Below are positions 11,821 to 38,957 of a DNA stretch of 38,957 nt, in pieces. The position numbers and the translations under genes were made by a program. The stretch is from IMG/VR virus record IMGVR_UViG_3300045988_085954; one strand, given 5' to 3'. How positions within the stretch are numbered: the stretch's first letter is position 1; the number at the start of each line of letters is the position of its first letter. Source of the stretch: a virus. The notes under the pieces were generated by a model that saw only the letters and a program-made list of their open reading frames with translations, had not been told where the DNA came from and did no database searches.

Positions 11821-14139
11821 TCACGTTATCGCTCTCAAATTGATTGGGGAATCACTTTCTAATTCATAAGGTGATACATCACTAGCCGCAGAACGTGCTT
11901 CATTGATACTATCCATATCAGCATCATAGTTGCTGTCATCACTTCCACTATCAGAAGAAGCAGGGTGTTCTGCCAGATAATTCACAGCATCATCATAGTC
12001 CTGCTTCGCAATCTGCCTTGCCTCAGACAGAGACATCTCAGCATGACCTCCGTCATTGCTCCAATCCACAGCATAGAACATTTGCGTGTAACGATTGTAG
12101 CTGATATGTACGGAGTCTGCGGGGTTGTCATCACCTGCGGCACGATAGCAGAGTTGGTCGAGTGCGTGCGTGAAATATCCTTCATCATCTGGTGTTCCAA
12201 TGTTGCTATAGACAGCTTTCGGGAATGCTCCCCAATGATACGTTTGGAAGTTGTCAACGACATCAGCCCCTGCTTTGTTCACAGCATCTGAAGGTGTGTA
12301 GCCACATGTCGTATAGGCTGTGGCAAGGTCGATAATCTCATCCCTGAGGTCAGAGTTCATATTGCTGTCAAAGCGTACTGTATCGTAGGTGCCATCGCTA
12401 TAGACACTATCAAGGTGTCTCACGCCTTCTATGGTGTAGCCATTCATCTGTGCTTCTACCAATTCTTTATTCTCTGACACAACATCTGGGTCAGCATTAT
12501 TGTAATTGGCAAACATACGGAGGCCTGTATCGAAGTCACCTGAGACATCTATCAGAGACTTTAGGAAACGTGCTTGTTTCGCTACGTCTGCACCAAAACT
12601 GTGCTCTACATTGTTTGGGTTGGTCGTAATCATCTTTACAAGACCCATCATAGCTTCATCGCCACCAATATTGACACCACCATCATCGGATGGTTTGATA
12701 GATGCAAGTTTTGACGCAAGGTCAGCACCAAAGGAACCCTTGATGTCTGCAAGTTGCTTCATGTCCATCAAGCGGAAAAAGGCATCGGAATTTTCATTTT
12801 CTGCATAGTACATCAACTCATTCCACGCCACAGGGTACATGGCATCTTTATTGAGCGTGTAGGAATTGATAGCAACCCCATCATACACAGTGTTTCCAGA
12901 AGCCCATGCACCTATGATACCTTTGATTTTCTCAGCATCCTTCAGTCCACCATTACTACCACCTGTGGAAGAACCACCTCCACCACCTCTGCCCCCACGG
13001 AGACCTAACGCTTGACGCATTGCCATTTTCTTCTCCGCTGTGTCATGGTCAATCTTTGAACGCAGTTCAGGGAGAAGGGAATTATATTCTAAGGCCTTCT
13101 CTGGGTCTGTCGTGCGAAGATTTGTGACTTCAGCAATGGCTTTCTTGTAGCCAGACTCTCCCATCTTGCGGAACTTTTCGACCCAATCATATTTTTCTTG
13201 TGTGATGAACTGCCTATTGTACTGGGAGGCCATTGTCTTGACAGACTGCATGTCTAAGAGGTCAGAGGCTTTGATGGTCGAGCCATCCATGCTTGTCTGA
13301 ATCGTTACTCTATCGAGCATCTGAGAGAGCCTTTTAGCAGGAATATGCCCTGTCTTGATAATCTCCTGCGTGAAGTCTTCTAGGAGCTTCTGGCGATACT
13401 GAGGAGGAAGCCCCATCAATCGACCTTCATTGAAGATTGCCTGTACACGGTCTGTCATGGCTCCATTTGCCCGCAAGAGGTCTACTGAATTGTTGATGAC
13501 ATCACCAAGCTCACTCTGCATGTTTGCCATCGTGACAACAACATCTTCCTCATTCTTCTTCTTGTTCCATGCGGTTGCAAGGTTCCCCATGTTGACCATA
13601 GAGTTCTCATAGAACCCACGGTCAAAAGCAAGTTGATTCTGAGGAGCAGAGCTTTTGAGGTGTGCGTCACGCCATTCATTCATGAAGTTGGCATAACGCT
13701 TCATTTCCTCTTCGGCACTTTTCGCAGGTTCCATTGCGTACTTTGCATCATAGTCCTGCTTCATGCGTGCCCCGAGGAAGTTGCCTCTGAGCTTTTCGGC
13801 ATAGGCCGTGAAATAGGGGTTAGCGGCAGAGTCCGCATAACCTTCAAGCTGTGCCGCATCAATGGCATTCAGTTTCTCAATGGCACCTGCGGACATGCCG
13901 TTAATCATATCGGTTGCTTCAATCTCGCCTTTGGCATTCAGGTATTTCTCGTGGTTCACTGTGTAACCCTGAAGGGCATCACTGAGCTTTGCCAGGTTAT
14001 CAGCAACATCCACAACCTTAGGTTGCACGGAGGAACCCTGAGACACCCCAAGCCCCTGATAACGTCCCTGATAGACACCATCAGGCTGTGGGATAAACTG
14101 CCTTGCTGTTCCTATGGCATTTGATATTTCTGTTGGCAT
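11821..14139 (-). CDS. Internal virion protein gp15-like
   Basis: 772 aa between the gp14-like and gp16-like genes, with a Gly-rich linker GGRGGGGGSSTGGSNGG. An AAAGGAG site sits 5-6 nt upstream of the ATG. Confidence 0.65.
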   Translation of the reverse strand: MPTEISNAIGTARQFIPQPDGVYQGRYQGLGVSQGSSVQPKVVDVADNLAKLSDALQGYTVNHEKYLNAKGEIEATDMINGMSAGAIEKLNAIDAAQLEGYADSAANPYFTAYAEKLRGNFLGARMKQDYDAKYAMEPAKSAEEEMKRYANFMNEWRDAHLKSSAPQNQLAFDRGFYENSMVNMGNLATAWNKKKNEEDVVVTMANMQSELGDVINNSVDLLRANGAMTDRVQAIFNEGRLMGLPPQYRQKLLEDFTQEIIKTGHIPAKRLSQMLDRVTIQTSMDGSTIKASDLLDMQSVKTMASQYNRQFITQEKYDWVEKFRKMGESGYKKAIAEVTNLRTTDPEKALEYNSLLPELRSKIDHDTAEKKMAMRQALGLRGGRGGGGGSSTGGSNGGLKDAEKIKGIIGAWASGNTVYDGVAINSYTLNKDAMYPVAWNELMYYAENENSDAFFRLMDMKQLADIKGSFGADLASKLASIKPSDDGGVNIGGDEAMMGLVKMITTNPNNVEHSFGADVAKQARFLKSLIDVSGDFDTGLRMFANYNNADPDVVSENKELVEAQMNGYTIEGVRHLDSVYSDGTYDTVRFDSNMNSDLRDEIIDLATAYTTCGYTPSDAVNKAGADVVDNFQTYHWGAFPKAVYSNIGTPDDEGYFTHALDQLCYRAAGDDNPADSVHISYNRYTQMFYAVDWSNDGGHAEMSLSEARQIAKQDYDDAVNYLAEHPASSDSGSDDSNYDADMDSINEARSAASDVSPYELESDSPINLRAIT

Positions 14140-14150
14140 ACTGTCTCCTT

Positions 14151-14170
14151 TCTATCTTGTGTCTTGCTTA
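14151..14170 (-). promoter_or_regulatory. Variant phage-RNAP promoter upstream of the gp15-like gene
   Basis: Plus strand tctatcttgtgtcttgctta; sense strand TAAGCAAGACACAAGATAGA runs directly into the ribosome-binding site, as at the DNAP-module promoter. Confidence 0.45.
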
Positions 14171-14911
14171 GAAGAAGTTGATTGTCTGATTCTTTTCCGT
14201 ATATGGATTGATATACTCAAACTTAAAGGACGTATTCTTCCAATCAATATTGGTATGGAAGAGACTGCTGTAATCTGGAGCATCATCATATATGGTCTTG
14301 AATGATGAGGATGATGTATCCCAATAGAGCTTATTGGAAACTCCAGAGGAACTATGGGAACTGCCCGTGCTCATGGCGGAGTCCTTGACACCTCCCTGAG
14401 CACGGATACCCTGTATAGCATCTTCCGTCTGCTCTGCCCTATAGTATGCCGTGCCTAGCTTCAGCAGGGTAGACCACAATGAGGGTTTCTCTACTTGTGC
14501 TATGCTGTTGAGTCTCCCCTTTGCCTCCATCGCCTGTGACTCCTTATTGAGGTCAATCTCATTGGACTTGCGCCGATAGTTATCTCTGGTACTAGACAAG
14601 GCTCGATTGGTATCAGCCTGTGCGGAACGTTTCAGGAGGTTGGCTGTCCTCCCACCACCTGCAAGACCTTCGTTGACTGCCGCCCCCACCTGTGAGGTCA
14701 AACGGCCTCCCTGAAGACGAATCTTCTGGAGGTCAGCCACAGTTGCATCAAAGGCATCGGCGCGCTCCTGCTCTAGGTTCTGGAAACCATAGTTCATGGA
14801 GGTTATGATATTTTTTGCCGTCTGGACATTGGCTCTTGCCTGTGCCTCTAGCGACTTATTCTGTGCATAGACATCAACGAGAGCGGAGCCTACGGCAACC
14901 ACAGCACCCAT
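14168..14911 (-). CDS. Internal virion protein (gp14-like)
   Basis: 247 aa, Ala/Gln/Ser-rich, sitting between tail tubular B and gp15 as T7 gp14 does. Confidence 0.45.
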   Translation of the reverse strand: MGAVVAVGSALVDVYAQNKSLEAQARANVQTAKNIITSMNYGFQNLEQERADAFDATVADLQKIRLQGGRLTSQVGAAVNEGLAGGGRTANLLKRSAQADTNRALSSTRDNYRRKSNEIDLNKESQAMEAKGRLNSIAQVEKPSLWSTLLKLGTAYYRAEQTEDAIQGIRAQGGVKDSAMSTGSSHSSSGVSNKLYWDTSSSSFKTIYDDAPDYSSLFHTNIDWKNTSFKFEYINPYTEKNQTINFF

Positions 14912-14915
14912 GCAA

Positions 14916-17255
14916 TCACACTCCTTTCGACCTTGCTACAAAGCTACCTTCCCACATGAAGCCAACCAAGGATAATGGCAGGGGAAGTGCGGAATCTATA
15001 TCAATATTCACGTTCGTGTTGAGAGCCTGAATTGGAAACTTGAAGATACCTGTGTCATCTGGGGTTCTCCCTAAGGTAGCTGTGTCAAGACCAATGTTAC
15101 GGGCAGTCATTACATACTTACATTCACGACCCCCATGATAGTGAACCTTTACCGTAAAGCCACCTGTATTGACATAGTTCAGATGTACATAGCGTATCTG
15201 AAGTCTGCCTGTGAGAACAGTGCTTGTACTCGTCTGTGTCGCTGTGTGCAGATAAAGTGGACTCAGACGAATATGGAAACGATATGGGATCCCAATGATG
15301 ACATCTTCGTGATGGTGTTCACCCACGAGAGTTAAGAGACCATCTTTAATCTCACTCTCGATATATTTCCCTTCGTGTGTAACGACACCAACCACCTTAT
15401 ACGCCTCTGTATCCTTTGCACCATATTCATTCATAAGGTTGAACGTGGTCGTATTAGTGTTACTGTCGTATTTTGCCGTGGAAGCAACTTTTTTACTATC
15501 CAGATAGACACGATAGGGTTCACGTCCTGCGATGTCTTCTGTCATGTAGGTTGTAAAGTTCATCTTCTCTAAGCAATGATTACCACCACGGTTAATGAGG
15601 ATGTACAAGGTACTACCTGCGAAAAAGGCACCAAAAACGCGACCACCCATCTCCCAACGACTCCAAGAGGACTGAACACGATTCTCATTCAGGAAGAGAT
15701 ACTTATAGACATAAATGCCTGTTTTGTCTCCCGTCGTAAGAACGAGCATGATGTTCTCAGAGGTATTCGCGGTCATCTCATAGACACCATTGGGAATGTA
15801 GTCAGGAATATGGGAAGTGATGTCCTGTGCATTCTTCTCGTCAGAGACCTGTTGTACCGAGTAGTATTCCTTGATGGAAGAGTATTCGGAGCGTTCTGCC
15901 GAGAAGTAAAGGTTGCGTCCCGCTCTGGTTGGTCTACAAGCAGGGTTCGACTCAAAGGTCGTGACTTCCACAAGGGCGGTATTCTTTGGAGATAAGACAC
16001 CATCTGCCCTGAGGACGAACTGGCTCTTATCAGAGAAGCAATAAAGCTCCCCGTTATATGGCACGGCATAGTTCAGAATGTTGACACGCTCTGTTGTTGT
16101 CGCAACATCAATGGGGTCTGTGTCAACCACATCGTTCGCCGTGGTCATCCAGAAGTTGAAGTAAGAAGCACTTTCGGAGCAGATGACATTTTCACCTGCC
16201 AAGAAGACAAGACGGTTGCGATGAAAGGCAATGTCGTTGATTGCCTGGTTGATGAAGGACGGGAGCGGATTGCTGTCATCATCGCCGACATTGCGTTTAT
16301 CCCATGTACACCTCTGGAACACAAAGGTGTCATTTGCCTGTCTCACAAGCTCATGGGGCATCGTGCGTGCCTCAAAGCTGATTGCGATGTCAGGCTTGAC
16401 ACATTCCTTCCAGACGTTGCCTTCACCATCATAGGTGATGTAGTAGTTTCCCGAGTTGTCTCCTTTAGGGTCTCCCGCAATCTCTAAGGTATACCCGTCA
16501 GGTGCTGAAGCAGGTAAGAGGTTGAATCTTTGCGCTTTGGTCGTGAAACCCATCATCGAGTTATTGTTGAAGCCATCAGCCGTCTTCACGCTTTTGACAC
16601 CACGGATGCGAAGCCACGAACTTCCTGTGTCTACGGTGTAACCTTTGGCACGCACCTGCTCTGCCAACTTCCCTACAATGAACCCTACGTCAATCTGTTT
16701 CGTATGGCTCTTATCGGAGCCATCGGGTGTCTCATGGGAGGCAACCTGTACCCCGTCTACCCAAATGGCGTAGGTGCGACCATACTGTCCCTGCTTGACA
16801 TTGATGAGTGCACCCTGCGTTGCATAGTCGTTCGGCGAGTGCTCATTGCTCATGCGTGTCACAATCTCACGATTTGCAATGAAGGTATGGTCTGCAATGG
16901 TAACAACCCTCAGAGACTTCTGGGGTGTTTTTGTCTCGATGTAAGCAGGGTCTTCCTTGTAGATGACAGGATACCTCTTGCCGTTGATGTCATAGACGTA
17001 GACAAGATTCTTGTAGAAATAGACAAAATATTTCAGGTTCTCGTCACGGTCTACGAAGTGAAGCAGAGGTGCCTCATCATTCTCAAGGGAAGACGAGAGT
17101 GCCTTGATGAATACCGTAGGTGGCCTTTTGGTTAAGCCATTGGCCTCTGTAGAGAGACCATTCTCCTGCTCTTCCAGTTGTTCGGGAAGACGGAGGATAG
17201 GTGCCTGTTGTGAGATACCAGACACAATGTTCTTGATATTCTGCGATATGAGCAT
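14916..17255 (-). CDS. Tail tubular protein B (gp12-like)
   Basis: The N-terminus MLISQNIKNIVSGISQQAPILRLPEQ...KRPPTVFIKAL matches the T7 gp12 start MALISQSIKNLKGGISQQPDILRYPDQ...KRPPLVFL. Confidence 0.85.
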   Translation of the reverse strand: MLISQNIKNIVSGISQQAPILRLPEQLEEQENGLSTEANGLTKRPPTVFIKALSSSLENDEAPLLHFVDRDENLKYFVYFYKNLVYVYDINGKRYPVIYKEDPAYIETKTPQKSLRVVTIADHTFIANREIVTRMSNEHSPNDYATQGALINVKQGQYGRTYAIWVDGVQVASHETPDGSDKSHTKQIDVGFIVGKLAEQVRAKGYTVDTGSSWLRIRGVKSVKTADGFNNNSMMGFTTKAQRFNLLPASAPDGYTLEIAGDPKGDNSGNYYITYDGEGNVWKECVKPDIAISFEARTMPHELVRQANDTFVFQRCTWDKRNVGDDDSNPLPSFINQAINDIAFHRNRLVFLAGENVICSESASYFNFWMTTANDVVDTDPIDVATTTERVNILNYAVPYNGELYCFSDKSQFVLRADGVLSPKNTALVEVTTFESNPACRPTRAGRNLYFSAERSEYSSIKEYYSVQQVSDEKNAQDITSHIPDYIPNGVYEMTANTSENIMLVLTTGDKTGIYVYKYLFLNENRVQSSWSRWEMGGRVFGAFFAGSTLYILINRGGNHCLEKMNFTTYMTEDIAGREPYRVYLDSKKVASTAKYDSNTNTTTFNLMNEYGAKDTEAYKVVGVVTHEGKYIESEIKDGLLTLVGEHHHEDVIIGIPYRFHIRLSPLYLHTATQTSTSTVLTGRLQIRYVHLNYVNTGGFTVKVHYHGGRECKYVMTARNIGLDTATLGRTPDDTGIFKFPIQALNTNVNIDIDSALPLPLSLVGFMWEGSFVARSKGV

Positions 17256-17257
17256 GA

Positions 17258-17824
17258 TTATGTCCTCTGCAATACTTCAGACACACCTGCGAGATTCAAG
17301 ATGTTTGCATCCTGCATATCCATGTCGTACTGCACGATGTCCTGATGGGCAATCTGAAGCGCATACTGCAAGTCCTGAGATACCGAAGCGTCACTAAAGT
17401 ATCTGGCCTGAAAGTCGATAGCCGCCTTTGCTGTGACATACTCTTTGAAGCAATCGGGAAGGTCATCGAATTCGACACCATAGATTACCTCTACTTCTAC
17501 AGGCTCTTTGAAACTGTAGGTGTCCTCTGTCATGTTGAAGAGATAGTTGCCACGCTTGACATACACGTTGTTGTCTTTTGACTTCAATGTGATGATAGTG
17601 TCATCCCATGCAATGCGATGAGTATTGACATCTGGTGTGTAGGTTCTTGTGGTCTTGTTGAAATCCCACCCCTGACGCTGAACATGTCTACTGACTTCCT
17701 TCAGGAGCCTACGGGCATTGATGACATCAATGTCTGTGCTGTCTTCCAGAATGGTTACAGGGTCACTGCCAATCGCTGAAAGCATCTGATTGATAGCGTC
17801 TAGTTCTGTCTGTGTTGTAAGCAT
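17258..17824 (-). CDS. Tail tubular protein A (gp11-like)
   Basis: 188 aa. SAIGSDPVTILEDSTDIDVINARRLLKEVSRHVQRQGWDFN aligns with T7 gp11 [41 protein letters not shown]. Confidence 0.85.
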   Translation of the reverse strand: MLTTQTELDAINQMLSAIGSDPVTILEDSTDIDVINARRLLKEVSRHVQRQGWDFNKTTRTYTPDVNTHRIAWDDTIITLKSKDNNVYVKRGNYLFNMTEDTYSFKEPVEVEVIYGVEFDDLPDCFKEYVTAKAAIDFQARYFSDASVSQDLQYALQIAHQDIVQYDMDMQDANILNLAGVSEVLQRT

Positions 17825-17836
17825 TGTTCTCCTTTC

Positions 17837-17872
17837 TAATAAAAAGGGAGAGAAGACACAAAGTCCTCTCCC
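17837..17872 (-). terminator. Hairpin terminator after the capsid gene (Tphi analogue)
   Basis: Stem gggagag (17845-17851) pairs with ctctccc (17865-17871) around a 13-nt loop. On the minus strand it is followed by TTTTTATT, exactly between the capsid gene and the gp11 gene. Confidence 0.55.
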
Positions 17873-17904
17873 CCTTCCTATTCAAGTTGGTTGTCTCAGT
17901 TTAA

Positions 17905-18906
17905 TCAGGCACCTGCGTTCTCGATGACACCAAGGAATGCCGCCTCAGGACGGAGTCCACCCATGCCAACTGCCATCTTCGCGATCATCTGGTCTGCCTG
18001 ATACTCGATGCGGCGTCCCGTCTCCATCGAGAGGTTCTTCAGACGCAGAACACCTGCCGCCGTCTTGTGGCAGATGATAATCGGATGCTTGTCTGCGTAC
18101 TCAGCTGGGAACACATGACCCTCACCCTGAATGACATTGATATTGTCATCGCCACCACGGACGATGTGCGGGCACTCAAGGATGTCAAAACCTGCAAGGC
18201 GAATGACATTGCCCTCAAGAATCGTACCAGAAGCACCATAGTCACGGTTCAGGAATTCTACTGCCGACGCGAGTGCCGAATGGTACTCAGGGTCGAGATA
18301 TGCATAGCGTTCCGTCGCGGGGACGTAGTTCTTAGACATCTCTGCCTTTGCCTTCAGGAGCGTCTGGTAGATAGCGAGACCCGTCTGCTTGTTGATACCA
18401 ACAACACCGGCATCGAGCTTCGTCGTAAGGACACCGCCCTTACCATTGCCCTCAACGTTCTCCTTCGTGTTCAGAGCCTCCTTCGCAAGCTCTGCGAGAA
18501 CCGAGGCATCATGCGAGATAGCAAGGGCATTGCCAAGCTCTGCCGCATACGGGGAACGGAAATCGTAGTGTGCAATGAACTCATCGAGGTCGAAGATGAG
18601 CGTATCTGCCGTCAGGAGGCCGTCGAGCTTGATGACTCGCTCATTCTGCTTGATGTTCTCGCGGAGGTCATCAAGGTTCTGACCTGCCTTGAGATAGTGT
18701 GCCTTCGTGCGGCCGAACACCGGGAACTGCGCGGACTTACCGGACGCAATCGTGCGTTCCATGACGCGCCCCGTGGTTACGGACGTTCGCTGAAAGGCCG
18801 TAAGCGTCTCACCGCTGAATACCTTCAGGGCAAGGGCAAGTTTGTCGGCATCGGTCTCTGCCTGACCATTGATAGACATCGGGTTTGCAATCGTTACATT
18901 TGCCAT
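17905..18906 (-). CDS. Major capsid protein (gp10A-like)
   Basis: Strong similarity to T7 gp10A: DKLALALKVFSGETLTAFQRTSVTTGR..., SGKSAQFPVFGRT..., GGLRPEAA.... An AAAGGAG ribosome-binding site is present. Confidence 0.95.
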   Translation of the reverse strand: MANVTIANPMSINGQAETDADKLALALKVFSGETLTAFQRTSVTTGRVMERTIASGKSAQFPVFGRTKAHYLKAGQNLDDLRENIKQNERVIKLDGLLTADTLIFDLDEFIAHYDFRSPYAAELGNALAISHDASVLAELAKEALNTKENVEGNGKGGVLTTKLDAGVVGINKQTGLAIYQTLLKAKAEMSKNYVPATERYAYLDPEYHSALASAVEFLNRDYGASGTILEGNVIRLAGFDILECPHIVRGGDDNINVIQGEGHVFPAEYADKHPIIICHKTAAGVLRLKNLSMETGRRIEYQADQMIAKMAVGMGGLRPEAAFLGVIENAGA

Positions 18907-18948
18907 TATACTTTTCTCCTTTGGTCTTCAGACCATCATTTTGTTTCT

Positions 18949-18970
18949 TCTCTGTCTTGTGTCTCACCTT
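18949..18970 (-). promoter_or_regulatory. Phage-RNAP promoter upstream of the capsid gene (phi10 analogue)
   Basis: Plus strand ctctgtcttgtgtctcacctta; sense strand TAAGGTGAGACACAAGACAGAG lies 43 nt upstream of the capsid ATG and overlaps the scaffold stop. Confidence 0.6.
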
Positions 18971-19721
18971 AGAAAATCGTTGCATTGCGGATTTTCTGGT
19001 AGACTTCACGGGTAAACTTCGGGTCAACCTGATAGCGCGAATCGGACATGTCTTTCGTCATCTGCTCCATAGAGGTGTACCCTTCGGCGTTAGCATGAAC
19101 ACTTCCATTTCCCATTACTGTGGGGTTTGCCGTGCCGTATGCCTTTGTCATTTTGGAAGTGAGGCCATCAATCGTGAGACGAATCTGACCAAGGTCACCC
19201 GTCTGGATGGTCTTATTGTAAGCATCGACAACCTCTTTCGGCTGTGTCTTCAGAAATTCTACGAGCTTATCATAACCTTCCTCACCACCTGCATAACCCT
19301 TTACCATACTGGTGAAGCGATCGCTGAGTGCCTGAAGGCCATTCAGGTAAGCGTTGACCACGGACTCTGGATAACCTGCTTTCTTCAGGGATTCCATGCT
19401 CTTTTCTGACAGGGAGCCATTGTTACTGTACTCATCGGCGAGCGCATCAAAATCGACTCCCTTATCCTTCAGGTCAACCTTCAGTTCCTCTTCGGCTTTC
19501 TTCTGGTTGTTCATGTCATCCTCAAGGGTTGACTGTTCAGCCTTCGGGGTCTCCTCCTGCTTCTTATCTTCACCCGTGAAACCTTCAGGATCCTTCGGGT
19601 CAGCCAGAGAATCTACGGTTTCTACCGAGGCCGTAGTTGTCGTACCATTCGTTGTTACACTGACTTCAGGGGTAGCTTTCTGCTCTTCGCCCTGAGTCTC
19701 TTCTACTTTTTCGTTTTCCAC
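18969..19721 (-). CDS. Scaffolding protein (gp9-like)
   Basis: 250 aa, highly acidic and helical, lying between the portal and capsid genes. Confidence 0.7.
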   Translation of the reverse strand: MENEKVEETQGEEQKATPEVSVTTNGTTTTASVETVDSLADPKDPEGFTGEDKKQEETPKAEQSTLEDDMNNQKKAEEELKVDLKDKGVDFDALADEYSNNGSLSEKSMESLKKAGYPESVVNAYLNGLQALSDRFTSMVKGYAGGEEGYDKLVEFLKTQPKEVVDAYNKTIQTGDLGQIRLTIDGLTSKMTKAYGTANPTVMGNGSVHANAEGYTSMEQMTKDMSDSRYQVDPKFTREVYQKIRNATIF

Positions 19722-19732
19722 TTGTAACCTCC

Positions 19733-21259
19733 TTACATGGCACCTTTAGCCACCTGTGGGATAGCCTGTTGTGCCATCTGCATCTGCATCTGTTGCTGTT
19801 GTTCCTGCTGAACCTCTTCATCTGTCTTGACCACAGAACTGGAATCAATGCCGAGTGCTGTTGCAATCTGACGAAGAATCTCACCCTGCTTGACGCTCGT
19901 CTGAAATGCCTCAGGGAATACCTGTGCGTAGCGGATGAAGGTGTCGAGCTTCGTGAGGTCATGACCACGACCCAATGCTTCGATGCCCGTGACAATCAAA
20001 GGTTCTACACCCTTCGAGCCCTGCGGCAGGTCTGGAATAGCACCCTCTCTGGTCATCTGAATCATGAAGCGTTTTACCAAGGGAAGCTGAAATTCCTGAG
20101 ACAAAATCGAGTAGATGGAACCTACGGTATCTTCAAGCTCATTCGCGACATAGCGAATCTCTTCTGCCGTGACTCGTTCTGCATTGCGCTGAACTGCTGA
20201 GTTGAGCAAGAAAGCATAGCTGAGTCTCCCTTCGATGGACTGGATAGCATTCTCAGTAATCTGAAGGTCGGATGTCTTGTTCACCTGAAGAATCTGGATG
20301 TCTTCAATCTTGCCGCGAATAAAGTCACCCGACTTCGCTTTTGATAACTCTGAGATTCTTGTGATAGCATTCGGGTTGACAAGGTACAAGATGTTACTCG
20401 CAACTGCCGCTACCTGTGCCACACTCTTCGAGAGTGCTTCGAGAACCTTGAGGTCACCCAAGTATTCATCAACAAAGGAACGACCATAGGATTCTCCATC
20501 CATCTTCTTGAGTCTCAGGGGAATCCAAGGGCTTTTGTCTTTCGGATATTCCTGTTCCGAACCACTGATGATTGCACCTTCAATCTCCTGATAGGATTTG
20601 TAGACATCCCCTTCAAGGTAGGTGTGTGTGTAGACATCATAGGCACGGTCGGCATCTACGGCACCGGATTCACCAAGGGCACTCTGGGCTTCGGGCGGCA
20701 ATGCTCCATAAGCCACGGACTCTTTGGCAATGATTTCAAGGACATTGCCAATGCCGTCACGAGACACCACATAGGAATTCAGTCTGTAGATACGCATACC
20801 ACCTTCAGCAGGTGGAAGGAAGACACACACGTTACCTGCAATGACAAGCTGAAGCAGTGCCTCGCTTGCAGTTGTACGGATTTGATGTGTCTCCATATAG
20901 GACGTAATCTTGCGCTCCAACTTTGACAAGGCTTCTTCCCACTGCTGTTTAGTCGCGGAATCATCACCGAGGGCATTCTCGATGTCATCTCCAAGTGCCA
21001 AGCGGAAGAAGGGAGCGTTCGGAGGGAACAAAGCAAGCATGAGCTTACTCGTCAAGTTGTTGACACCACGGGCACCAATGGACTGATAAGGTGTCTCATA
21101 GTTGGTACTGGCAGAATCTGTAGCCTTAGGGAAGGCCATTGGAATAGTATACTTCGCACACTTTTCGGCTCTATCTGTGTACGGTCTTCTATCGCCTTCC
21201 AGTTTGGCGTATCTACTCTTTGCGGTCTCAACATTATGGTCGAATACTTTCACACTCAC
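19733..21259 (-). CDS. Portal (head-to-tail connector) protein, gp8-like
   Basis: SRYAKLEGDRRPYTDRAEKCAKYTIPMAFP corresponds to T7 gp8 SVYERLKNDRAPYETRAQNCAQYTIPSLFP. The GTG start overlaps the upstream stop as GTGA. Confidence 0.9.
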   Translation of the reverse strand: MSVKVFDHNVETAKSRYAKLEGDRRPYTDRAEKCAKYTIPMAFPKATDSASTNYETPYQSIGARGVNNLTSKLMLALFPPNAPFFRLALGDDIENALGDDSATKQQWEEALSKLERKITSYMETHQIRTTASEALLQLVIAGNVCVFLPPAEGGMRIYRLNSYVVSRDGIGNVLEIIAKESVAYGALPPEAQSALGESGAVDADRAYDVYTHTYLEGDVYKSYQEIEGAIISGSEQEYPKDKSPWIPLRLKKMDGESYGRSFVDEYLGDLKVLEALSKSVAQVAAVASNILYLVNPNAITRISELSKAKSGDFIRGKIEDIQILQVNKTSDLQITENAIQSIEGRLSYAFLLNSAVQRNAERVTAEEIRYVANELEDTVGSIYSILSQEFQLPLVKRFMIQMTREGAIPDLPQGSKGVEPLIVTGIEALGRGHDLTKLDTFIRYAQVFPEAFQTSVKQGEILRQIATALGIDSSSVVKTDEEVQQEQQQQMQMQMAQQAIPQVAKGAM

Positions 21260-21447
21260 AGGTTAATACCCGTTCCGCCCGAGCCAATGGCGTTATTCGT
21301 AGAATCGACCATGAGAGCGGCTTTCCCCTGCTTCTTCTTGCGCGAGGAATCTTCCTCCGGCTTCTTAGTTGCCTCTTCTCCTACGGGGGCAGGTGCCGCC
21401 GCAGGTGTAGGATCTTTGTAGTCTGGTTTCTTAAAAAGTTTACCCAC
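21256..21447 (-). CDS. Small Pro/Ala/Lys-rich protein (start re-assigned to GTG at 21447)
   Basis: An AAGGGAGGTG site precedes a GTG codon placed right after the upstream stop. The product is low-complexity. Confidence 0.3.
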   Translation of the reverse strand: MGKLFKKPDYKDPTPAAAPAPVGEEATKKPEEDSSRKKKQGKAALMVDSTNNAIGSGGTGINL

Positions 21448-21448
21448 G

Positions 21449-21643
21449 TTATACACCTCCCTTGTAGATGTTTTCACTCTGGACGAGCAGAGAACTCAAT
21501 CCTTTTTTCTTCTGGTTCACGCCATCGGTTCCCATCTGTGGACTATCCGGCTCTTCGCTTGATGTGGAAGATACCAATTCGCGTCCTGTAATGGTTGGTG
21601 TCGATGGGATATTTGGTTTGAAAATCTTCTTAAAGAACCCCAT
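21449..21643 (-). CDS. Small hypothetical protein (start re-assigned to ATG at 21643)
   Basis: An AGGAGGAAG site sits 4 nt upstream of the ATG (MGFFKKIFKPN...). Confidence 0.3.
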   Translation of the reverse strand: MGFFKKIFKPNIPSTPTITGRELVSSTSSEEPDSPQMGTDGVNQKKKGLSSLLVQSENIYKGGV

Positions 21644-21842
21644 TATCTTCCTCCTGCTGTGCCTGAATTGCTTCGAGGCGTTCGATGATGGTGTTGATAC
21701 CATACATAATCCCCATTGCAATATCAGCGTTTTTCACATTGACGGATTGATGGAGTACCATTGGCAACGTATAGGTCTCCCGAAGATACTGGCAGAGTTC
21801 CTTCGAGACATACGGGATTTTCATCTCTTCATTGATTGTCAT
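21630..21842 (-). CDS. Hypothetical protein
   Basis: 70-aa ORF lying in the gene string between the exonuclease and the portal gene. Confidence 0.3.
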   Translation of the reverse strand: MTINEEMKIPYVSKELCQYLRETYTLPMVLHQSVNVKNADIAMGIMYGINTIIERLEAIQAQQEEDNGVL

Positions 21843-23448: not shown

Positions 23449-24030
23449 TCACTCGTAGGAACACCTCTTCTCTTTACATGACTTACAGTTTGGCTTGACA
23501 TTCCCAAAGACCTGAGGACATGCCGCAACAAGTGCCTGATAAATCTGCTGTGCAAGTTCCTGATGTTCTTTACTAGCACGCTTACAAAGACGCTTCGGCA
23601 GGTACTCAAACCATGCGCGGAAATTGCCCGTGATGACGAGTTTGTACTCTGCCGCTTTGGGGAGCATATAGGCGATGTCTTCTTTCTTGCAGACACCTTC
23701 AGCTACCTTAAGGTGATAGACCTGCATGATGTATTTTGTCATGTAGTCAATCATGTCATCACCTGTCTCATAGACTCCATGCAGTTCACTTCCGCGACTG
23801 GACTGAACCGTAGGACTGAAATGACGATGACGGGTAAGCTGTAGTAACGTCGTGATACTACAAGTAATCTCGAAGGTTGCATAGCAATGCTCCAAGACAC
23901 TCAAGTGACCTGCTTCAATGATGTGTTGAATCACAGCATCAGAGGCCTGTTTCTGGTAGCATTGCCCTGCCGCTCTCTTTAAGAGATTCATTGCATCGGG
24001 TGTCATGCTAATCAGTTTTGCTACACTCAT
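23449..24030 (-). CDS. thyX: Flavin-dependent thymidylate synthase ThyX
   Basis: The ThyX signature RHRxxSxxxxSxR is present as TRHRHFSPTVQSSR. Confidence 0.75.
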   Translation of the reverse strand: MSVAKLISMTPDAMNLLKRAAGQCYQKQASDAVIQHIIEAGHLSVLEHCYATFEITCSITTLLQLTRHRHFSPTVQSSRGSELHGVYETGDDMIDYMTKYIMQVYHLKVAEGVCKKEDIAYMLPKAAEYKLVITGNFRAWFEYLPKRLCKRASKEHQELAQQIYQALVAACPQVFGNVKPNCKSCKEKRCSYE

Positions 24031-24245
24031 AAGAAAAGTGTCAACCCCCTGTCTTTCAGATGTCCTTTGATTTTCCCTTTGGGATTGTAGATGGTTGCTG
24101 AAGCATCTGGAAATTGCTTCAGGAACTTCAGCATAGAACCAAAGCTACTGAAGATGACCACATGACACTCATTGTCTTTCTCTGTGGCATCCATCATTAC
24201 AAAGAATCTTGCTCTGTGTCTGAGAGTACGGTAATCAGCGACCAC
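24027..24245 (-). CDS. Hypothetical protein (GTG start in track; true start uncertain)
   Basis: ORF in the gene string with no recognisable motif. Confidence 0.25.
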   Translation of the reverse strand: MVADYRTLRHRARFFVMMDATEKDNECHVVIFSSFGSMLKFLKQFPDASATIYNPKGKIKGHLKDRGLTLFL

Positions 24246-24380
24246 GCTTCTTATCCCTCTCTTCCATGTGCTTCAAGTCAATCGTATATCCGCATTTGCA
24301 ACGGACGGATGTCACAGCTGTGGAATAGGAGCGAAGCAATACCTTGTCGCACCGTGGGCATTTCACCTGTTCTTTAATCA
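24235..24380 (-). CDS. Small Zn-ribbon protein (48 aa, not in the ORF track)
   Basis: RC translation gives MIKEQVKCPRCDKVLLRSYSTAVTSVRCKCGYTIDLKHMEERDKKRGR. An AAAGGA site sits 8 nt upstream of the ATG. Confidence 0.35.
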
Positions 24381-24402
24381 TGTAGCTCATCCTTTCATTT
24401 AC

Positions 24403-25067
24403 TTATTTATTATCTACTGTTCCTGTCCATTGGTCTGCCATAGCTTCAGCAATACCAGGAAAGGTCTTACTACGCCATTTAGCTGTTTCAGGGTCATTCC
24501 AAGCATACTGTTTCCCATTGAAAATAGCTTTCCATATATTTGTTGTCCGTTTCTCCGGAGGACATATATCCGTAGGTTGGAGGTTTGGCAATCCTTTCAA
24601 CCACAAACAGGTTTTTTTTTTACACTCTGTTGAACCAAATTGGTAAGGGTTTATGATCTGATTAGGTTTTCTATATTTTGTACTCATAATGCCTACAGGA
24701 TTCTCAATAGCAATTTTTTTTTTTTTCACAATCAGCATTTACAAACTTCATAAAGAAATCAATAGCTTCTACCTGTAAACTACGAGGTTTCTTTCCTTCC
24801 GTAAACCATCGCTGACCTGCACAGCATAAATGCGTACATGGAGGAAAAGCAATAATCATATCCCACTTAGTGTTAATTTCATGCTCTGTACCATCTGTAG
24901 TCTTAAAGGTGCAATATCCATTCAGTAATGGTAAAACATCCTCCATTATATGCCATTCCTGATGGCCCCCACTACAATCTTGAATATCGCAAGAGTAAGC
25001 CTCATGTCCTCTCTCTCAGAGCAATAGTGACTCTCTGGGATTCTTCACAAGCTACTAGAACACGCAT
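24403..25067 (-). pseudogene. SAM-MTase-like (C5-cytosine-MTase-like) gene split into three reading frames at two simple-sequence repeats
   Basis: Three consecutive minus-strand fragments: MRVLVACEESQRVTIALRERT* (25067-25002), ERGHEAYSCDIQ...IAFPPCTHLCCAG...ADCEKKK (through 24704), and KKIAIENPVG...FPGIAEAMADQW (24738-24403). The frame breaks coincide with G(AG)4 at 25009-25017 and A13 at 24714-24726. Removing one A from the A13 tract fuses the second and third frames exactly, and adding one GA unit fuses the first and second. Confidence 0.5.
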
Positions 25068-25106
25068 TAAAACCCCCTTCTAAAAATAGACAAAAAAAAG
25101 ACTGCC

Positions 25107-27008
25107 TCAGTGACAATCGCACCAATTCTTACCAATGATTCCTTCAGTGTCCAACTGCATACGGAATCCAAAGAACTCCTGCGCGTCACGCATAGCCGCC
25201 TGTGCCTCAGAGACAACAATCTCAGCAATCTCTTTGGTACGACATGCTACCTGAATTTCATCGTGAATCCATGCCATGTAGGCAAAGTCACCATCCCATC
25301 CATGTTTCAGACCACGCTGAATCAGCCGTTCTTCTGTCCTGACAATCCACTTCTTGCACACGAGGGCACCTGCGGATTGCAGGAGCAGATTCAGTGCCGA
25401 ATGTGGACTGCGTACATGCAAAAGTCTCCCATCGAGACCTTTAAGATAATGCCGTTTCCAACGAACGACCTTACCACGGTCAGTTTCAACAATAGCATTC
25501 TGAACGGCATCCCGGAGATTCTTGATAGCAGGTGTCGCTTTCAGGAATTTGCGCTTAATGCGCTTTCCGTCAGTTGCGTCACCACCAATGATTTTGCCAA
25601 TCTTTGCATCTCCTGCACCATATAAGAAGGCGTATATGAAGGTCTTCGCCTGATTTCTTTCAGGCAATCCTGCCGCCTTCTGATTCATGGTGTGGATGTC
25701 TCCATTCAGGATGGTGTGTGCATACTTTCCCTTATCGTATGGTGACATGTAGTGAGCGAGACACCTCAGTTCAAGGCCACAAGCATCAATACCTGCTTGC
25801 CACCAATCCCCTGCACTCCACAAGGCGCGACACTCAGCACCATAAGGTGAGCCTACGTGTGGCACCTGAGCCACGTTAGGAGAACTATGGGTAGCTCTGC
25901 CACTCACAGCACCATTGGGAACCACGCGACCATGAATGCATCCATCATCGGGGTCATAGGCAGAGAGCCACGCATTACTGCCATTGGCAATCTGACCAAG
26001 ACGCTTCTTCAACATCAAGGACTCCTGTATCAGCCCTGTGATTTCTCGTAGTTCCTCAGGGCACGCTGTATCTTCCTTGATGTATTGCATGATGATGTCA
26101 TCCATCTTCAGGCGATAATCAGCCAAGTTTGGATTCTCATCCATGTCTGGGATATCATAGAGGTCTGGGTTGTCTGGGTTGTAGTTGTACATGGTACGAA
26201 AGACATATTCAATCTGCTGTCTGCTGTTAGGATTGAATGTCTTGTACTTCTGAATTGGAACTCCTGCTTTATAGCCAAGACGCTTGTTGTCTCGCTTTGG
26301 CACGAATACCTTATCTGGAATCTCAGGTATCTTTTGGAGGAGCGTGGTCGTAATGATAGCCTGACGTTCCTTCAGTTCCTCAGAGAGCTTCAAGGCTCCC
26401 TCATAGTCGAATTTGAAACCATTGCGTTCCTGCTTCGCCATGAGCCATGCTACCTGATGTTCCAGTTCAATCGCTCTTGAAGAATAAGGCTTTGCGGTCA
26501 GCTTCTCATAGAGTGCTTTCGTGACCCACACATCCTGCTCGTTATAATCAAGCATCTCCGGATTGTAGACCGCCCATGCGTCTTCCTGTTCACCATAGGT
26601 TCCCTTGAGGACACCCAAGCGATACCCCCACGCCATGAGTTTGTGGGATTTATACAGGGTTTTGGGGAGCTTTCCAGACTTCATGAGGCCGAGGTCTATC
26701 GTGTCAATGTTTGAATAAATGAGACGAGCGAGGACAAGCGTGTCCACAACCTGCTCCTGTTGATCATACGAGATGCGAAAAAGATGTGGATAGAGCTTCT
26801 CAAGGGCGGGGATGTCATAGTCAATCACATTATGACCACACAGTTTGCCGCCCTGCGTGATTGTATCTTGAAGCATCTTGACTCCCTCCTCTACATTGGT
26901 GGGGTCAAAGCGATACATCTTTTTCGTCTCTGTATCATAGACACACATGCAATGAAGGACGCTTACTTCCTTCAGAAGACCATTTGTCTCAATATCAAAC
27001 ATCAACAT
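25107..27008 (-). CDS. DNA polymerase, family A (T7 gp5-like)
   Basis: 3'-5' exonuclease motif MLMFDIETNG, polymerase motif A DACGLELR, motif B RNQAKTFIYAFLYG, motif C HDEIQV. GGAGG ribosome-binding site. Confidence 0.95.
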   Translation of the reverse strand: MLMFDIETNGLLKEVSVLHCMCVYDTETKKMYRFDPTNVEEGVKMLQDTITQGGKLCGHNVIDYDIPALEKLYPHLFRISYDQQEQVVDTLVLARLIYSNIDTIDLGLMKSGKLPKTLYKSHKLMAWGYRLGVLKGTYGEQEDAWAVYNPEMLDYNEQDVWVTKALYEKLTAKPYSSRAIELEHQVAWLMAKQERNGFKFDYEGALKLSEELKERQAIITTTLLQKIPEIPDKVFVPKRDNKRLGYKAGVPIQKYKTFNPNSRQQIEYVFRTMYNYNPDNPDLYDIPDMDENPNLADYRLKMDDIIMQYIKEDTACPEELREITGLIQESLMLKKRLGQIANGSNAWLSAYDPDDGCIHGRVVPNGAVSGRATHSSPNVAQVPHVGSPYGAECRALWSAGDWWQAGIDACGLELRCLAHYMSPYDKGKYAHTILNGDIHTMNQKAAGLPERNQAKTFIYAFLYGAGDAKIGKIIGGDATDGKRIKRKFLKATPAIKNLRDAVQNAIVETDRGKVVRWKRHYLKGLDGRLLHVRSPHSALNLLLQSAGALVCKKWIVRTEERLIQRGLKHGWDGDFAYMAWIHDEIQVACRTKEIAEIVVSEAQAAMRDAQEFFGFRMQLDTEGIIGKNWCDCH

Positions 27009-33991: not shown

Positions 33992-36634
33992 TTATGCAAA
34001 ACAGAAATCTGATTTTGCCACTAAATCAAGGTCGAGAGTGCCAAACTTTGGTAACTCTGGTACTTCATCGAGATCATCAATAAGATAGCTCACGGACTCT
34101 AGGAATCCTGCGAGGTGATTCTGGTCTTTATAAAGACCAATAAATTCATCTCTGATAGTCTTGTAGAGACTCCCGGCATGGGCGGCATCTGTTCCGAAAC
34201 TGTCATGTATCATCATAAAGTTTCGATTGCCCTTCAGGTGCTCCGAGACCACTACCCTCTGTAGATGGCTTGCATCCATGCTATGAATGAAGTTGGGCGC
34301 TATGCCGTTCTGCTGTCTCCTATTGTCAATCTCATCGGTCTCCTCTTGATTGTAGAAGCGTACCTGAGAGCCATCAAAGCGCAACTTTATGCACTCTTGT
34401 CGCATCTTCATGTAGTTCTGCTGAACTAAGAAGCCGTTCGGCGTTGTCCATGAAACTACCTCTCCAGATTGGCAGATAAGTCTTGCAACCTTCTGCAACC
34501 ATTCCATACCTTCAACAGCCTTGACAACAGTTGTCGCTACAGCTTCCCATATCAATTTAGCCATGTAGACAGCGGCCTGATTAGTATTCAAGAATGGACT
34601 GTTGTCTGGATGGTCAAGGACATACGGGTGGATGATGTCGGTCAGCAAATTTTCCTTGAATCCATACTGCTTTGACCCATACGCCAAGGTCATTACTGAC
34701 CGCTTGCAGACCTTGCGGGTAATGCCATCCTTGCCAAACTTGATACGATTGAAGGCTACCCAATTCTGTGCGAGTGTCTTCGTTCCATACTTGTAGGAAT
34801 CGGAACCTTCTTTTTTCTCGTCCTCTGTCCCCGTCTGGACATCCTTGAGGAGCTGAACATTTACCTTATCAGCTACGATTGAATAGATGTCTTGCACCTT
34901 GTCCGAGGGTACGAGGTTTACGGCAAAACCACCTACCTCATCCCGGAGGAGGGCTGAGAAGTGTTGCAGGCCGGAGCATGTACCATCAAACGCCAAGGGC
35001 AGATTCGACATAAATCCCTTGACAGAACCACTGTTTTCTGCCTTGTAGTCATTTAGGCGTTTCCATTCGTGACAGAAGGACAAAAATTCCATCGGGTAAT
35101 CACCTTTAGACACCTCATACCACCATGTGTAACCTAGAGGGTCTTCTGCACTTGCGATAATATCGACTGTATGCTCCTTGACCCATGCTACACGGTCGGC
35201 AAATGCTATCTTGTCGTTACCTGCAAGGTTTGCGCCGTGGATAGCCATCCACTTGTCATCCCCTTCAGCCAATGGCGAAGGATTTGCGAACAGGAGCAGG
35301 GATTTCTGGATGTCATCCCCTTGCGGACTCAGCGCGGTCGGGATAGGATAGCAACGACCACGATAATCTACGTTCCACGGAAAGTAAATTTTGTCATACT
35401 CGCTGAACTTTTCGGCCACCTTGAGTGCCAAAAGGCATCTAAGGGCTTTGCTCTTGCGTGCTTCTTCCTGCTTGTAGAGGCCTACGGCTTTCTTTTTGTG
35501 CTCCTTCACTTGCTCTTCAGGCGCATCCTCTGGGAGGCGTGGGAGTGTCTGATACGGTTCCGTCCTAGGAACGCCACCGAGTTCACCACCAGACGCATAG
35601 ATTTCCTTGAGTGTCTGCAAGATAAATGGATTGATGATAAAAGGCGTATCCTGCATGGCATTGAGAGCGTCATAAACTACTCCAAGGTCAATCGCTGACA
35701 GTTTCTTATTGTAGGCTTTCAGAAACTTTGTTTTTGTCTGTACCTTCAGCCGGATGAGCTGAGTGCCTAGCACGGACTCGCCATAATAGCCTCCATCATG
35801 TGGGTCAGTCCAATGGCGCGGCGGAATAATAGTTGGCATGTAGCGGACTGCATTCGCAATCATGTGGGACTCGTTGCTTTCCCATGTAGCCTTAAACCAA
35901 TCCGTAGCATCCACAGCTTTGATATGCTTTGTCCCCCGGCCTGTGCTTACCTCCCTTTCACGAATGACATAGTAATCGGAGCCTGCAATGAGCATTTCAA
36001 GCACCTTTGCGCCTAGGACTTCTACCTGCTGATTTGACCAAGCGAGACCTACATATCCTTCCTTGTTCATGCGGTTTGTTGCATAGGCCACACGATAAGA
36101 CGAACGTACACGCTGTTCTATGCCTTTGTCCATTGACTTTTTCAGCCATTTGACATCTGTATCCTTGTTGACCTCTTCCCATTGATAGAAGCGTTCAATA
36201 TCCGCTTCTCGCTTGATTTGCATCCCAATCAGCATAGCCACATTGGATAGGGTGGTCTGTGTTGTATCATGCGACATCAACACGGCATCCATCGCCTTGC
36301 TGTGTCCGGCGAGGACTAGGAGGTCTTCCAAAGCCTCCTCTTTTTCCCGATAGATGACTAAAAGTTCTTTCATTGGCAGGAGCCAAGCGCCTTGCGTGGT
36401 CTTCTTAGGGTGCTTTGCGTCCTCTAGGAGAGCGTGGATATTCTTGCGGCATGTCTCCCATGAGTGCTTCATGAGCTTGCCTGCTAGGTGCCCTTCGCCG
36501 CCTTCTCCCTCGCGCTTTGCCTTGTCAAGAGCTTCCTTCAGGTGCTCCTCTGCTTCCTGCTTTGCCTCCGCTTCTAGGAGGAGCTCCTGTGTGTAGAGCC
36601 CTCCGTATAGCTTTTCATATTCTTCAAATTTCAT
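33992..36634 (-). CDS. Single-subunit DNA-directed RNA polymerase (T7 gp1-like)
   Basis: 880 aa. Motif A DGTCSGLQHFSA, motif C IHDSFGT and a C-terminal ...DFCFA match T7 RNAP. A TGGAGG ribosome-binding site is present. Confidence 0.95.
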   Translation of the reverse strand: MKFEEYEKLYGGLYTQELLLEAEAKQEAEEHLKEALDKAKREGEGGEGHLAGKLMKHSWETCRKNIHALLEDAKHPKKTTQGAWLLPMKELLVIYREKEEALEDLLVLAGHSKAMDAVLMSHDTTQTTLSNVAMLIGMQIKREADIERFYQWEEVNKDTDVKWLKKSMDKGIEQRVRSSYRVAYATNRMNKEGYVGLAWSNQQVEVLGAKVLEMLIAGSDYYVIREREVSTGRGTKHIKAVDATDWFKATWESNESHMIANAVRYMPTIIPPRHWTDPHDGGYYGESVLGTQLIRLKVQTKTKFLKAYNKKLSAIDLGVVYDALNAMQDTPFIINPFILQTLKEIYASGGELGGVPRTEPYQTLPRLPEDAPEEQVKEHKKKAVGLYKQEEARKSKALRCLLALKVAEKFSEYDKIYFPWNVDYRGRCYPIPTALSPQGDDIQKSLLLFANPSPLAEGDDKWMAIHGANLAGNDKIAFADRVAWVKEHTVDIIASAEDPLGYTWWYEVSKGDYPMEFLSFCHEWKRLNDYKAENSGSVKGFMSNLPLAFDGTCSGLQHFSALLRDEVGGFAVNLVPSDKVQDIYSIVADKVNVQLLKDVQTGTEDEKKEGSDSYKYGTKTLAQNWVAFNRIKFGKDGITRKVCKRSVMTLAYGSKQYGFKENLLTDIIHPYVLDHPDNSPFLNTNQAAVYMAKLIWEAVATTVVKAVEGMEWLQKVARLICQSGEVVSWTTPNGFLVQQNYMKMRQECIKLRFDGSQVRFYNQEETDEIDNRRQQNGIAPNFIHSMDASHLQRVVVSEHLKGNRNFMMIHDSFGTDAAHAGSLYKTIRDEFIGLYKDQNHLAGFLESVSYLIDDLDEVPELPKFGTLDLDLVAKSDFCFA

Positions 36635-38741: not shown

Positions 38742-38892
38742 CTTTATGTCTCCCTTCTATTACCAGACATGCATTAGCGGCTCACCAATACAACCAGGAT
38801 TAAAAATTGAATAATCAGCAGAATGAAGTTATACATTTCTTCCCTCTTTTCTCATCTTGTGATATAATTTAGGTAATCGGGAGGTTGCCTGC

Positions 38893-38957
38893 CTGTGACT
38901 AGCCCGGCTAGCCTCCCTTTGGTTACCTAAGGACGATGGCAACAACCAGACTTGCTA
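38893..38957. repeat. 65-bp exact direct terminal repeat (copy 2)
   Basis: Identical to 1-65. Confidence 0.8.

Follow-up and report, generated by a model that had tools for sequence, protein, structure and literature searches.

A gene for a protein resembling C5-cytosine methyltransferases (MTases) lies broken over three reading frames in the DNA of a T7-like phage, recorded as IMGVR_UViG_3300045988_085954, whose 38,957 nucleotides are referred to here, at full length, as the window. The locus is interpreted, with a probability of about 0.72, as a recently inactivated pseudogene of an optional gene. On the comparative evidence its frame breaks are real and inherited, not assembly noise, and the pattern of substitutions places the gene under strong purifying selection until recently. 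The broken allele has presumably lost its function. We infer that replication slippage was the mutational mechanism, and this is consistent with the six insertions and deletions (indels) that separate the window from its relative L007 over 8.6 kb, all of which lie at simple repeats, four of the six within the cassette that carries the gene.

This accessory cassette lies among genes that are all on the minus strand, and contains a terminator-like element, a ribosome-binding site and the MTase-like gene (Table 1), the last with a G+C content of 38.5% against 47.3% for the window. An earlier note made from the letters of the window had described three successive open reading frame (ORF) pieces broken at two slippage-prone repeats, a G(AG)4 tract and an A13 tract; the pieces, their coordinates, both repeats and the position of each break on its repeat are confirmed in the sequence. 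The (GA)4 break alone would cut the protein off after 21 residues. At this first junction the frame is regained by one extra GA unit or two fewer, and at the second with A12 or A15, so that the repair arithmetic of the note was correct and gives a single ORF of 221 or 222 amino acids. The ancestral tract lengths are nevertheless different, and can be considered settled because homologues show the canonical ...LRERGHE... spacing that (GA)5 yields, and A6, read as E-K-I (GAA AAA ATT), at the second site; with these lengths the protein has 218 amino acids, and the A12 proposed as a repair gives way to A6 as the original state. If the second tract is read as A14 instead of A13, piece 3 returns to the frame of the ATG, piece 2 is still out of frame and the gene is still broken. 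Re-initiation at an internal ATG (M42, giving an 80-residue ORF) was rejected as a source of functional protein, the product being without the invariant N-terminal C7-Q11 loop and beta1-beta2. Elsewhere the window consists of long intact minus-strand ORFs throughout, with no other broken gene.

Relatives were gathered through an exact look-up of the window's ThyX protein, the members of the 90% protein cluster and one contig from IMG/VR. The ThyX look-up was the productive search; that with the Zn-ribbon protein gave a single short contig, and exact look-ups of the window's 111- and 80-residue fragments found none, so that A13 was not seen elsewhere by this route. When the region and 24 kb of the window were compared by Megablast with 50,697 GenBank phages, no relative was detected, and the one match, of 140 bp, was at chance level. 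Exact-pattern scans, in collections that exclude the window's own contig, gave one extra contig in IMG/VR and none in JGI metagenome contigs or GTDB genomes.

Within what is by its identical ThyX the same phage, four states of the cassette were found: absent, intact, one step off and broken. The cassette is absent from L100, L101, L103, L107 and L109, in which the polymerase gene ends in TAA with no hairpin, and the stop is followed by a 30-nt spacer and the shared GTAAATGAAAGG ahead of the Zn-ribbon gene; at the two ends of the stretch that is replaced, the flanks shared with these genomes read ...GATTGTCAC and GTAAATGAAAGG.... An intact gene of 218 codons is present in two members of the window clade, L102 and L108 (T9, (GA)5, A6, A7), and in 16 contigs (L085-L094, L097-L099) of a sister clade at ~93% identity ((GA)5, A6, AAGAAAA). 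L007 is one step off (T10, (GA)5, A6, A8), its A8 being out of frame. The broken haplotype comprises the window (T8, (GA)4, A13, A10), L084 and L104 (T8, (GA)4, A14, A10), L105 and L106 (T8, (GA)4, A14 and an out-of-frame A11), and two partial contigs, L095 and L096, that cover only the two A tracts (A14 and again the out-of-frame A11). Alignments place the (GA)4 tract in all five full-length copies, and the close orthologues, whose comparison the note had recommended, are intact with shorter A tracts and (GA)5.

Record names point to at least seven assemblies with the broken haplotype, the window included. They come from several projects, include a National Center for Biotechnology Information (NCBI) metagenome-assembled genome (MAG), and are named in three or more assembly styles (k119_, NODE_ and METAG-scaffold). 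The five full-length copies are free of substitutions over 735 bp, their only differences being those at A13/14 and A10/11, and the window differs from L084 by a single A, in an A tract, over 6,285 bp. The lesions are therefore inherited: broken copies without substitutions differ by A-tract length only, and L095 and L096 have the same A14 and A11. Disabling lesions that recur in four other full-length assemblies, set beside intact orthologues, are what would be expected of a pseudogene. Only the exact length of the window's longest tract appears insecure, as A13 is found in the window only and the six other assemblies of the haplotype all read A14.

From the intact allele the broken haplotype is separated by three substitutions, one of which changes the Shine-Dalgarno sequence from GGAGG to GGGGG. 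The repaired gene has 35 synonymous and 6 non-synonymous differences from the intact sister clade, a ratio of non-synonymous to synonymous rates (dN/dS) of 0.035, and only 2 coding differences from intact L102, which together argue for a recent inactivation. Because there are two independent frame breaks plus the Shine-Dalgarno change, no single slip restores the ORF, and since many sibling genomes are without the whole cassette, the gene is dispensable. No in-frame copy was found among the seven carriers of the (GA)4/A13-14 haplotype; those of the window clade, L102 and L108, have (GA)5/A6/A7.

The sequence of events envisaged would begin with a horizontally acquired optional gene encoding a 218-residue orphan C5-MTase-like protein of family phrog_757 in a T7-like temperate phage. 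Slipped-strand mispairing at pre-existing repeats would then have converted (GA)5 to (GA)4, a -2 frameshift, A6 to A13/14, a +7 or +8 frameshift, and A7 to A10/11, alongside the Shine-Dalgarno mutation. Such lesions would have been tolerated or even favoured in a dispensable gene, and the broken haplotype would have spread; after the death of the gene the A runs may have grown and become hypermutable, so as to vary by ±1 nt between samples. Loss would have happened repeatedly, once by an A7 to A8 slip in L007 and once through the window's lesions. Siblings without the cassette may have deleted it or may never have acquired it.

Table 1. Features of the cassette and its immediate neighbours in the window
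Feature	Coordinates	Strand	Remarks
DNA polymerase gene	25107-27008	-	Upstream neighbour of the cassette
Accessory cassette, ~700 bp, low GC	24403..25106	-	Flanked by the stop codon of the DNA polymerase gene and by the Zn-ribbon gene
Terminator-like hairpin GATTGTC-ACTGA-GGCAGTC with variable T tract	25092..25118	-	Overlaps the polymerase stop codon
T8 tract	25092-25099	-	Just upstream of the gene; tail of the terminator-like hairpin; missed in the earlier note
Shine-Dalgarno core GGGGG	25073..25077	-	GGAGG in all intact copies (alignment column 42)
C5-cytosine-MTase-like gene, probable pseudogene over three frames	24403..25067	-	ATG 25067-25065, stop 24405-24403
Piece 1, frame 0	25002..25067	-	MRVLVACEESQRVTIALRERT then TGA; read from the sequence
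G(AG)4 tract GAGAGAGAG, first frame break	25009..25017	-	One GA unit fewer than the (GA)5 of all intact relatives
Piece 2, +1 frame	24704..25015	-	ERGHEAYSCD...FPPCTHLCCAG...NADCEKKKNCY*; reading starts inside the G(AG)4 tract; read from the sequence
A13 tract, second frame break	24714..24726	-	Grown from ancestral A6
Piece 3, third frame (+1 again)	24403..24725	-	K(n)-IAIENPVG...TCLWLKG...FPGIAEAMADQWTGTVDNK*; listed ORF 24403-24738
A10 tract, in frame (CKKKTC)	24612..24621	-	Missed in the earlier note
Zn-ribbon gene	24235-24390	-	Downstream neighbour of the cassette

The repeats in the cassette exceed chance: A13, A10 and T8 are the only homopolymers of at least 7 bases in the window, and all lie within 488 bp, where the gene's own A content leads to an expectation of 0.009 A runs of at least 10 bases and 0.0004 of at least 13. 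All of them vary among relatives. The position of the A10 tract is occupied by A7 in L102 and L108, by A8 or A11 in the out-of-frame copies, and by the interrupted AAGAAAA in the sister clade, a synonymous AAG to AAA change in the window clade having made this a pure A7 run. The T tract, whose length is T8 in the window, T9 in the intact copies, T10 in L007 and T6-T9 in the sister clade, was in addition seen to range from T6 to T10 among contigs with identical encoded proteins. The hairpin and T tract are brought by the cassette itself and are absent where it is absent.

The earlier note had allowed for a phase-variable function, a decaying pseudogene or a sequencing error, and the comparative data favour the pseudogene and disfavour the other two. 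A phase-variable gene would be expected to carry simple sequence repeats in its ORF or promoter, and (GA)4, A13, A10 and the upstream T8 are such repeats; it would also show frame-changing variation of its tracts among close genomes, as is the case for GA4/GA5, A6/A13/A14 and A7/A8/A10/A11. It is possible to imagine that the repeats evolved as a switch by which a prophage-borne orphan MTase is reversibly turned ON and OFF, given that four tracts, including the genome's only long homopolymers, cluster in one 700-bp cassette, that their lengths vary between otherwise identical genomes, that the ON allele (A7) of L102 and L108 and the OFF allele (A8) of L007 are one slip apart, and that the AAG to AAA change purified one of the runs. 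We nevertheless regard such a switch as unlikely, and equally the suggestion that the phage or lysogen population would thereby keep both methylated and unmethylated DNA as a hedge, for instance against Type II versus methylation-dependent Type IV restriction. Recovery of the ORF by one slip holds only for L007 (A8 to A7) and fails in the window, which needs GA+1 together with an A tract changed by -1 or +2; all seven copies of the window haplotype are OFF, and in the five that cover the full gene two out-of-frame tracts and a weakened Shine-Dalgarno sequence mean that reversion needs at least two simultaneous events. Efficient switching would call for longer tracts than the ancestral (GA)5, A6 and A7, which are stable across 13 contigs of the sister clade, and the many genomes without the cassette fit dispensability better than regulated use. 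Phasevarions, as exemplified by the mod genes of Haemophilus, Neisseria and Helicobacter, likewise have simple repeats within an MTase ORF, the lengths of which shift the frame among close relatives; usually, however, they involve one long tract, with ON and OFF states within one clonal population, whereas the window allele has several changed short tracts requiring two corrections, all its copies are OFF, the gene is often absent, and its product would be an orphan C5-like enzyme on a prophage. Hypermutable polyG tracts of Campylobacter phages, reportedly proposed by Sorensen and colleagues in 2021 to be a source of useful phenotypic diversity within populations of phages, are similar in being phage-encoded homopolymers whose length alters phage gene expression, but the runs in the window are of A and GA, lie in an accessory MTase-like gene and give no sign of maintained switching. 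A still more elaborate arrangement, in which a working contingency locus on a T7-like prophage has its orphan C5-type enzyme toggled by several tracts in lysogens of Selenomonas (the host identified below), with the terminator T tract tuning read-through and slippage of the T7-type RNA polymerase adding partial rescue, appears improbable; were it true, it would constitute a prophage-borne 'phasevarion' altering the methylation of phage and gut host alike.

The breaks could also be bypassed during expression, or be unreal. According to the first of these explanations the full-length protein is still made, RNA polymerase slippage correcting the A13 break, and either RNA slippage or a +1 shift of the ribosome correcting the one at the GA tract. 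Poly(A)-frameshifted genes of insect endosymbionts are said, following Tamas and colleagues in 2008, to be rescued by polymerase infidelity. Rescue of this kind has been reviewed (PMC5009743), and A/T runs as short as 3-4 bases suffice for T7 RNA polymerase to slip (PMC6260861). The window resembles these cases in combining a frameshift in a long A run with a single-subunit RNA polymerase of the slippage-prone T7 type, and differs from them in its upstream, non-homopolymer (GA)4 break; because of that second break, slippage of the RNA at the A tract is not enough to regain the protein, and two corrections per mRNA or protein would be needed. The (GA)4 junction is without a known slippery motif, and any shift would be confined to the 11 nt between the +1-frame TGA and the 0-frame TGA; a ribosomal +1 frameshift was rejected here, there being no slippery or RF2-like motif in these 11 nt and no conservation of the site. 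A programmed frameshift is likewise excluded, as the two-frame architecture is not conserved: the best 120 of at least 8,000 homologues are single ORFs (of 200-243 residues), and the close orthologues are plain in-frame ORFs in which the shift sites are not kept as recoding signals. The weakened Shine-Dalgarno sequence also counts against expression by recoding, which we consider very unlikely overall. Less credible still, to the point of being nearly untenable, is that the real genome carries an intact gene, the breaks being miscalls of homopolymers or repeats. The unique A13 of the window, against A14 in the otherwise identical L084 and all other copies, does show that errors of ±1 are plausible in such runs, and L095 and L096 are contigs of ~2.5x coverage that start near the A tract. 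However, (GA)4 with an A tract of 13-14 nt is present in four other full-length assemblies and a long A tract in two more partial contigs, the intact allele assembles cleanly elsewhere as (GA)5/A6/A7, the difference between A6 and A13/14 is too large for a miscall, and no other gene of the window is broken. The note had held that the dinucleotide break was not typical of sequencing errors, and the same (GA)4 in the four other assemblies shows that it is not one. Since the breaks are real and inherited, an artefact is on these comparisons excluded for both the (GA)4 break and the expansion of A6 to A13/14.

Several points weigh against the interpretation as a recent pseudogene. The tract lengths come from assemblies, and heterogeneity of length within a sample would point to active switching. 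The A7 and A8 alleles lie one base apart in near-identical genomes, as a reversible switch would leave them, and growth of the A tracts by 7 or 8 and by 3 or 4 nt without substitutions is a great deal to ascribe to neutral drift alone. In the mRNA, the A13 break may be leaky, by analogy with the slippage-prone class to which the phage's T7-type RNA polymerase belongs. Finally, there has been almost no divergence since the break that could reveal relaxed selection, the dN/dS of 0.035 describing the period before inactivation.

Searched against MTase profiles, as the earlier note had proposed, the repaired protein gives a full-length match to phrog_757, 'DNA methyltransferase' (E 3.6e-62; residues 1-220 aligned to positions 15-224 of the 247 in the profile), and none in Pfam (at E up to 1) or NCBIfam, so that the three pieces do represent one MTase-like protein. 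The PDB sequence search recovered no MTase, either with the single protein or with a 49-sequence profile, its only matches being designed beta-propeller repeats, which are spurious. In a fold comparison of the structural model, on the other hand, all 16 best matches are C5 MTases, including DNMT3B, the prophage MTase 3g7u, M.HhaI, M.HaeIII and DNMT2; these outscore generic Rossmann proteins, and Foldseek agrees. The modelled structure shows the fold of a C5-cytosine MTase catalytic domain. It shares with M.HhaI, M.HaeIII, DNMT3A/B and 3g7u both the fold and the order of elements, namely beta1-helix, an acidic-ended beta2, beta4 followed by PPC(T), beta5 ending in E-N-P, and a motif X-like C-terminal helix. 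The motif IV-like PC and ENV-like IENPVG picked out in the note fall on invariant residues: P76, P77, C78 and T79 are unchanged in 49 homologues and directly follow strand 71-74 (beta4) of the model, and I121, E122, N123 and P124, likewise invariant, stand at the end of strand 118-123 (beta5) in the place of motif VI, whose third residue is here P, not V.

The family departs from typical C5 MTases in having no match at the sequence level in Pfam, NCBIfam or PDB and in its size, about 218 amino acids, where members of the Pfam PF00145 superfamily typically have at least 300. Only ~30 residues (roughly 159-190), between the TCLWLK strand and the C-terminal helices, are available for a target-recognition domain. 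Motif I (FxGxG) is absent and replaced by an invariant A-C-E-E-S-Q loop after beta1 (C7-E8-E9-S10-Q11), and because this loop is without glycines the binding of S-adenosylmethionine (SAM) is at best putative. The name C5-methyltransferase-like is accordingly well supported by the model, and of the SAM-dependent DNA MTase that the note had proposed the MTase-like fold stands; with motif I missing and no match to Pfam DNA_methylase, SAM dependence is presumptive, as is the methyltransferase activity of the intact protein. A structural neighbour, 8yf3, is a carboxymethyltransferase, and the cofactor, the target and even the transferred group of the window's family are putative. No experimental characterisation of phrog_757 was found, and the name of this family, from which the window's copy differs in being frameshifted twice, appears to rest on remote similarity.

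The family is nevertheless large. Tblastn matches to phrog_757 occur in 771 phage records, and at least 8,000 database proteins are among the matches listed, all with E <=1e-10; the 90% cluster of protein P0001 has 42 members, mostly of 218 amino acids, on dozens of contigs, which are intact orthologues of the window's gene and all have (GA)5, A6 and A7 or AAGAAAA, and proteins of the phrog_757 type were also noticed in several small gut phage contigs (H9, H12 and H19). The closest homologue in a cultured phage, that of Enterocloster phage PMBT24 (OQ326496.2; L001 1501-2133; 66% identity), is likewise split: its 'methyltransferase Dmt' ends early, and the conserved C-terminus lies in another frame after a G7 run at ~1963-1969, a split that could be a sequencing error or a further natural break at a repeat tract within the family. 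A 71%-identical homologue in Microviridae sp. MG945386.1 (5.6 kb; L002 1501-2260) is truncated at residue 161, just past the stretch aligned with the window's A10 tract, where its own sequence recurs as an inverted duplication. As the record is marked UNVERIFIED and the duplication falls within the gene, it was set aside as evidence; it is probably a chimera of assembly.

Of the T7-like features of the window, the single-subunit RNA polymerase (33992-36634) and the T7-type terminase (1123-2811) are accompanied by a family A DNA polymerase and a T7 tail protein. The same phage genome was found inside bacterial contigs of 100-320 kb (L110-L114; host flank at ~12,900-21,689 of each locus), where its neighbours include an aminotransferase, an M20 peptidase, recG, dapB, asd, ireB and ruvX. 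RecG from this host flank shares 100% identity with its counterpart in an uncultured Selenomonas MAG and 98% with the one in Selenomonas bovis DSM 23594. From this integration and the identity of RecG, the window phage is taken to be a temperate T7-like phage of gut Selenomonas. No integrase was detected among ten window proteins scanned, no tRNA gene at the prophage-host junction in L110, and nothing relevant in the literature on T7-like prophages of Selenomonas. Positions 1-65 and 38893-38957 of the window form an exact 65-bp direct repeat, and in the prophage contigs the sequence beyond window position 1 runs into the equivalent of 38819-38892 and then into host DNA. The contig is thus probably a circular or terminally redundant form, with an attachment site near 38,819.

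Variation elsewhere in the genome also involves repeats and optional genes. The minus-strand gene at 21256-21477 contains an in-frame repeat at 21331-21340 that is (AAG)3 in the window, (AAG)4 in L007 and L105, and variant in L102. At ~24050, in the 3' end of the ORF at 24027-24245 that overlaps the start of thyX, the window has G5 and L007 has G6, possibly a frame difference at the very end of a 72-residue gene. In sister-clade phages (L086 389-2967; L087, L090) the DNA polymerase gene is in two ORFs, of 464 and 179 or 202 amino acids, and in L086 an Endonuclease_7 (homing-endonuclease-like) gene stands between the two halves. A PAPS-reductase-family gene directly follows thyX in L086 (4391-5224), L087 (2318-3076) and L097 (1649-2473) and is absent from the window, where only a FeThRed_B-like gene is found at that place; it amounts to a further optional cassette of this replication module.

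Frameshift inactivation at simple repeats, phase-variable MTases and hypermutable tracts in phage genes are all of known kinds. What is new here is a well-documented instance with a population picture, together with an uncharacterised MTase-like family. For annotation, the split ORFs at 24403-25067 are best treated as one gene, in all probability dead, and not as three small genes, and the exact length of the long A run should not be trusted. phrog_757 emerges as a very large phage family that has a C5-MTase fold and is not covered by a Pfam model; its cofactor loop is unusual, and almost no room is left for a target-recognition domain. The locus would provide a natural example of what is a common process, in which the repeats of an optional phage gene break first, the breaks spread, and the homopolymers lengthen once selection is lifted. 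With absent, intact, one-step-off and broken alleles coexisting in a single gut phage lineage, it also constitutes a natural test of whether methylation benefits or harms a phage in Selenomonas.

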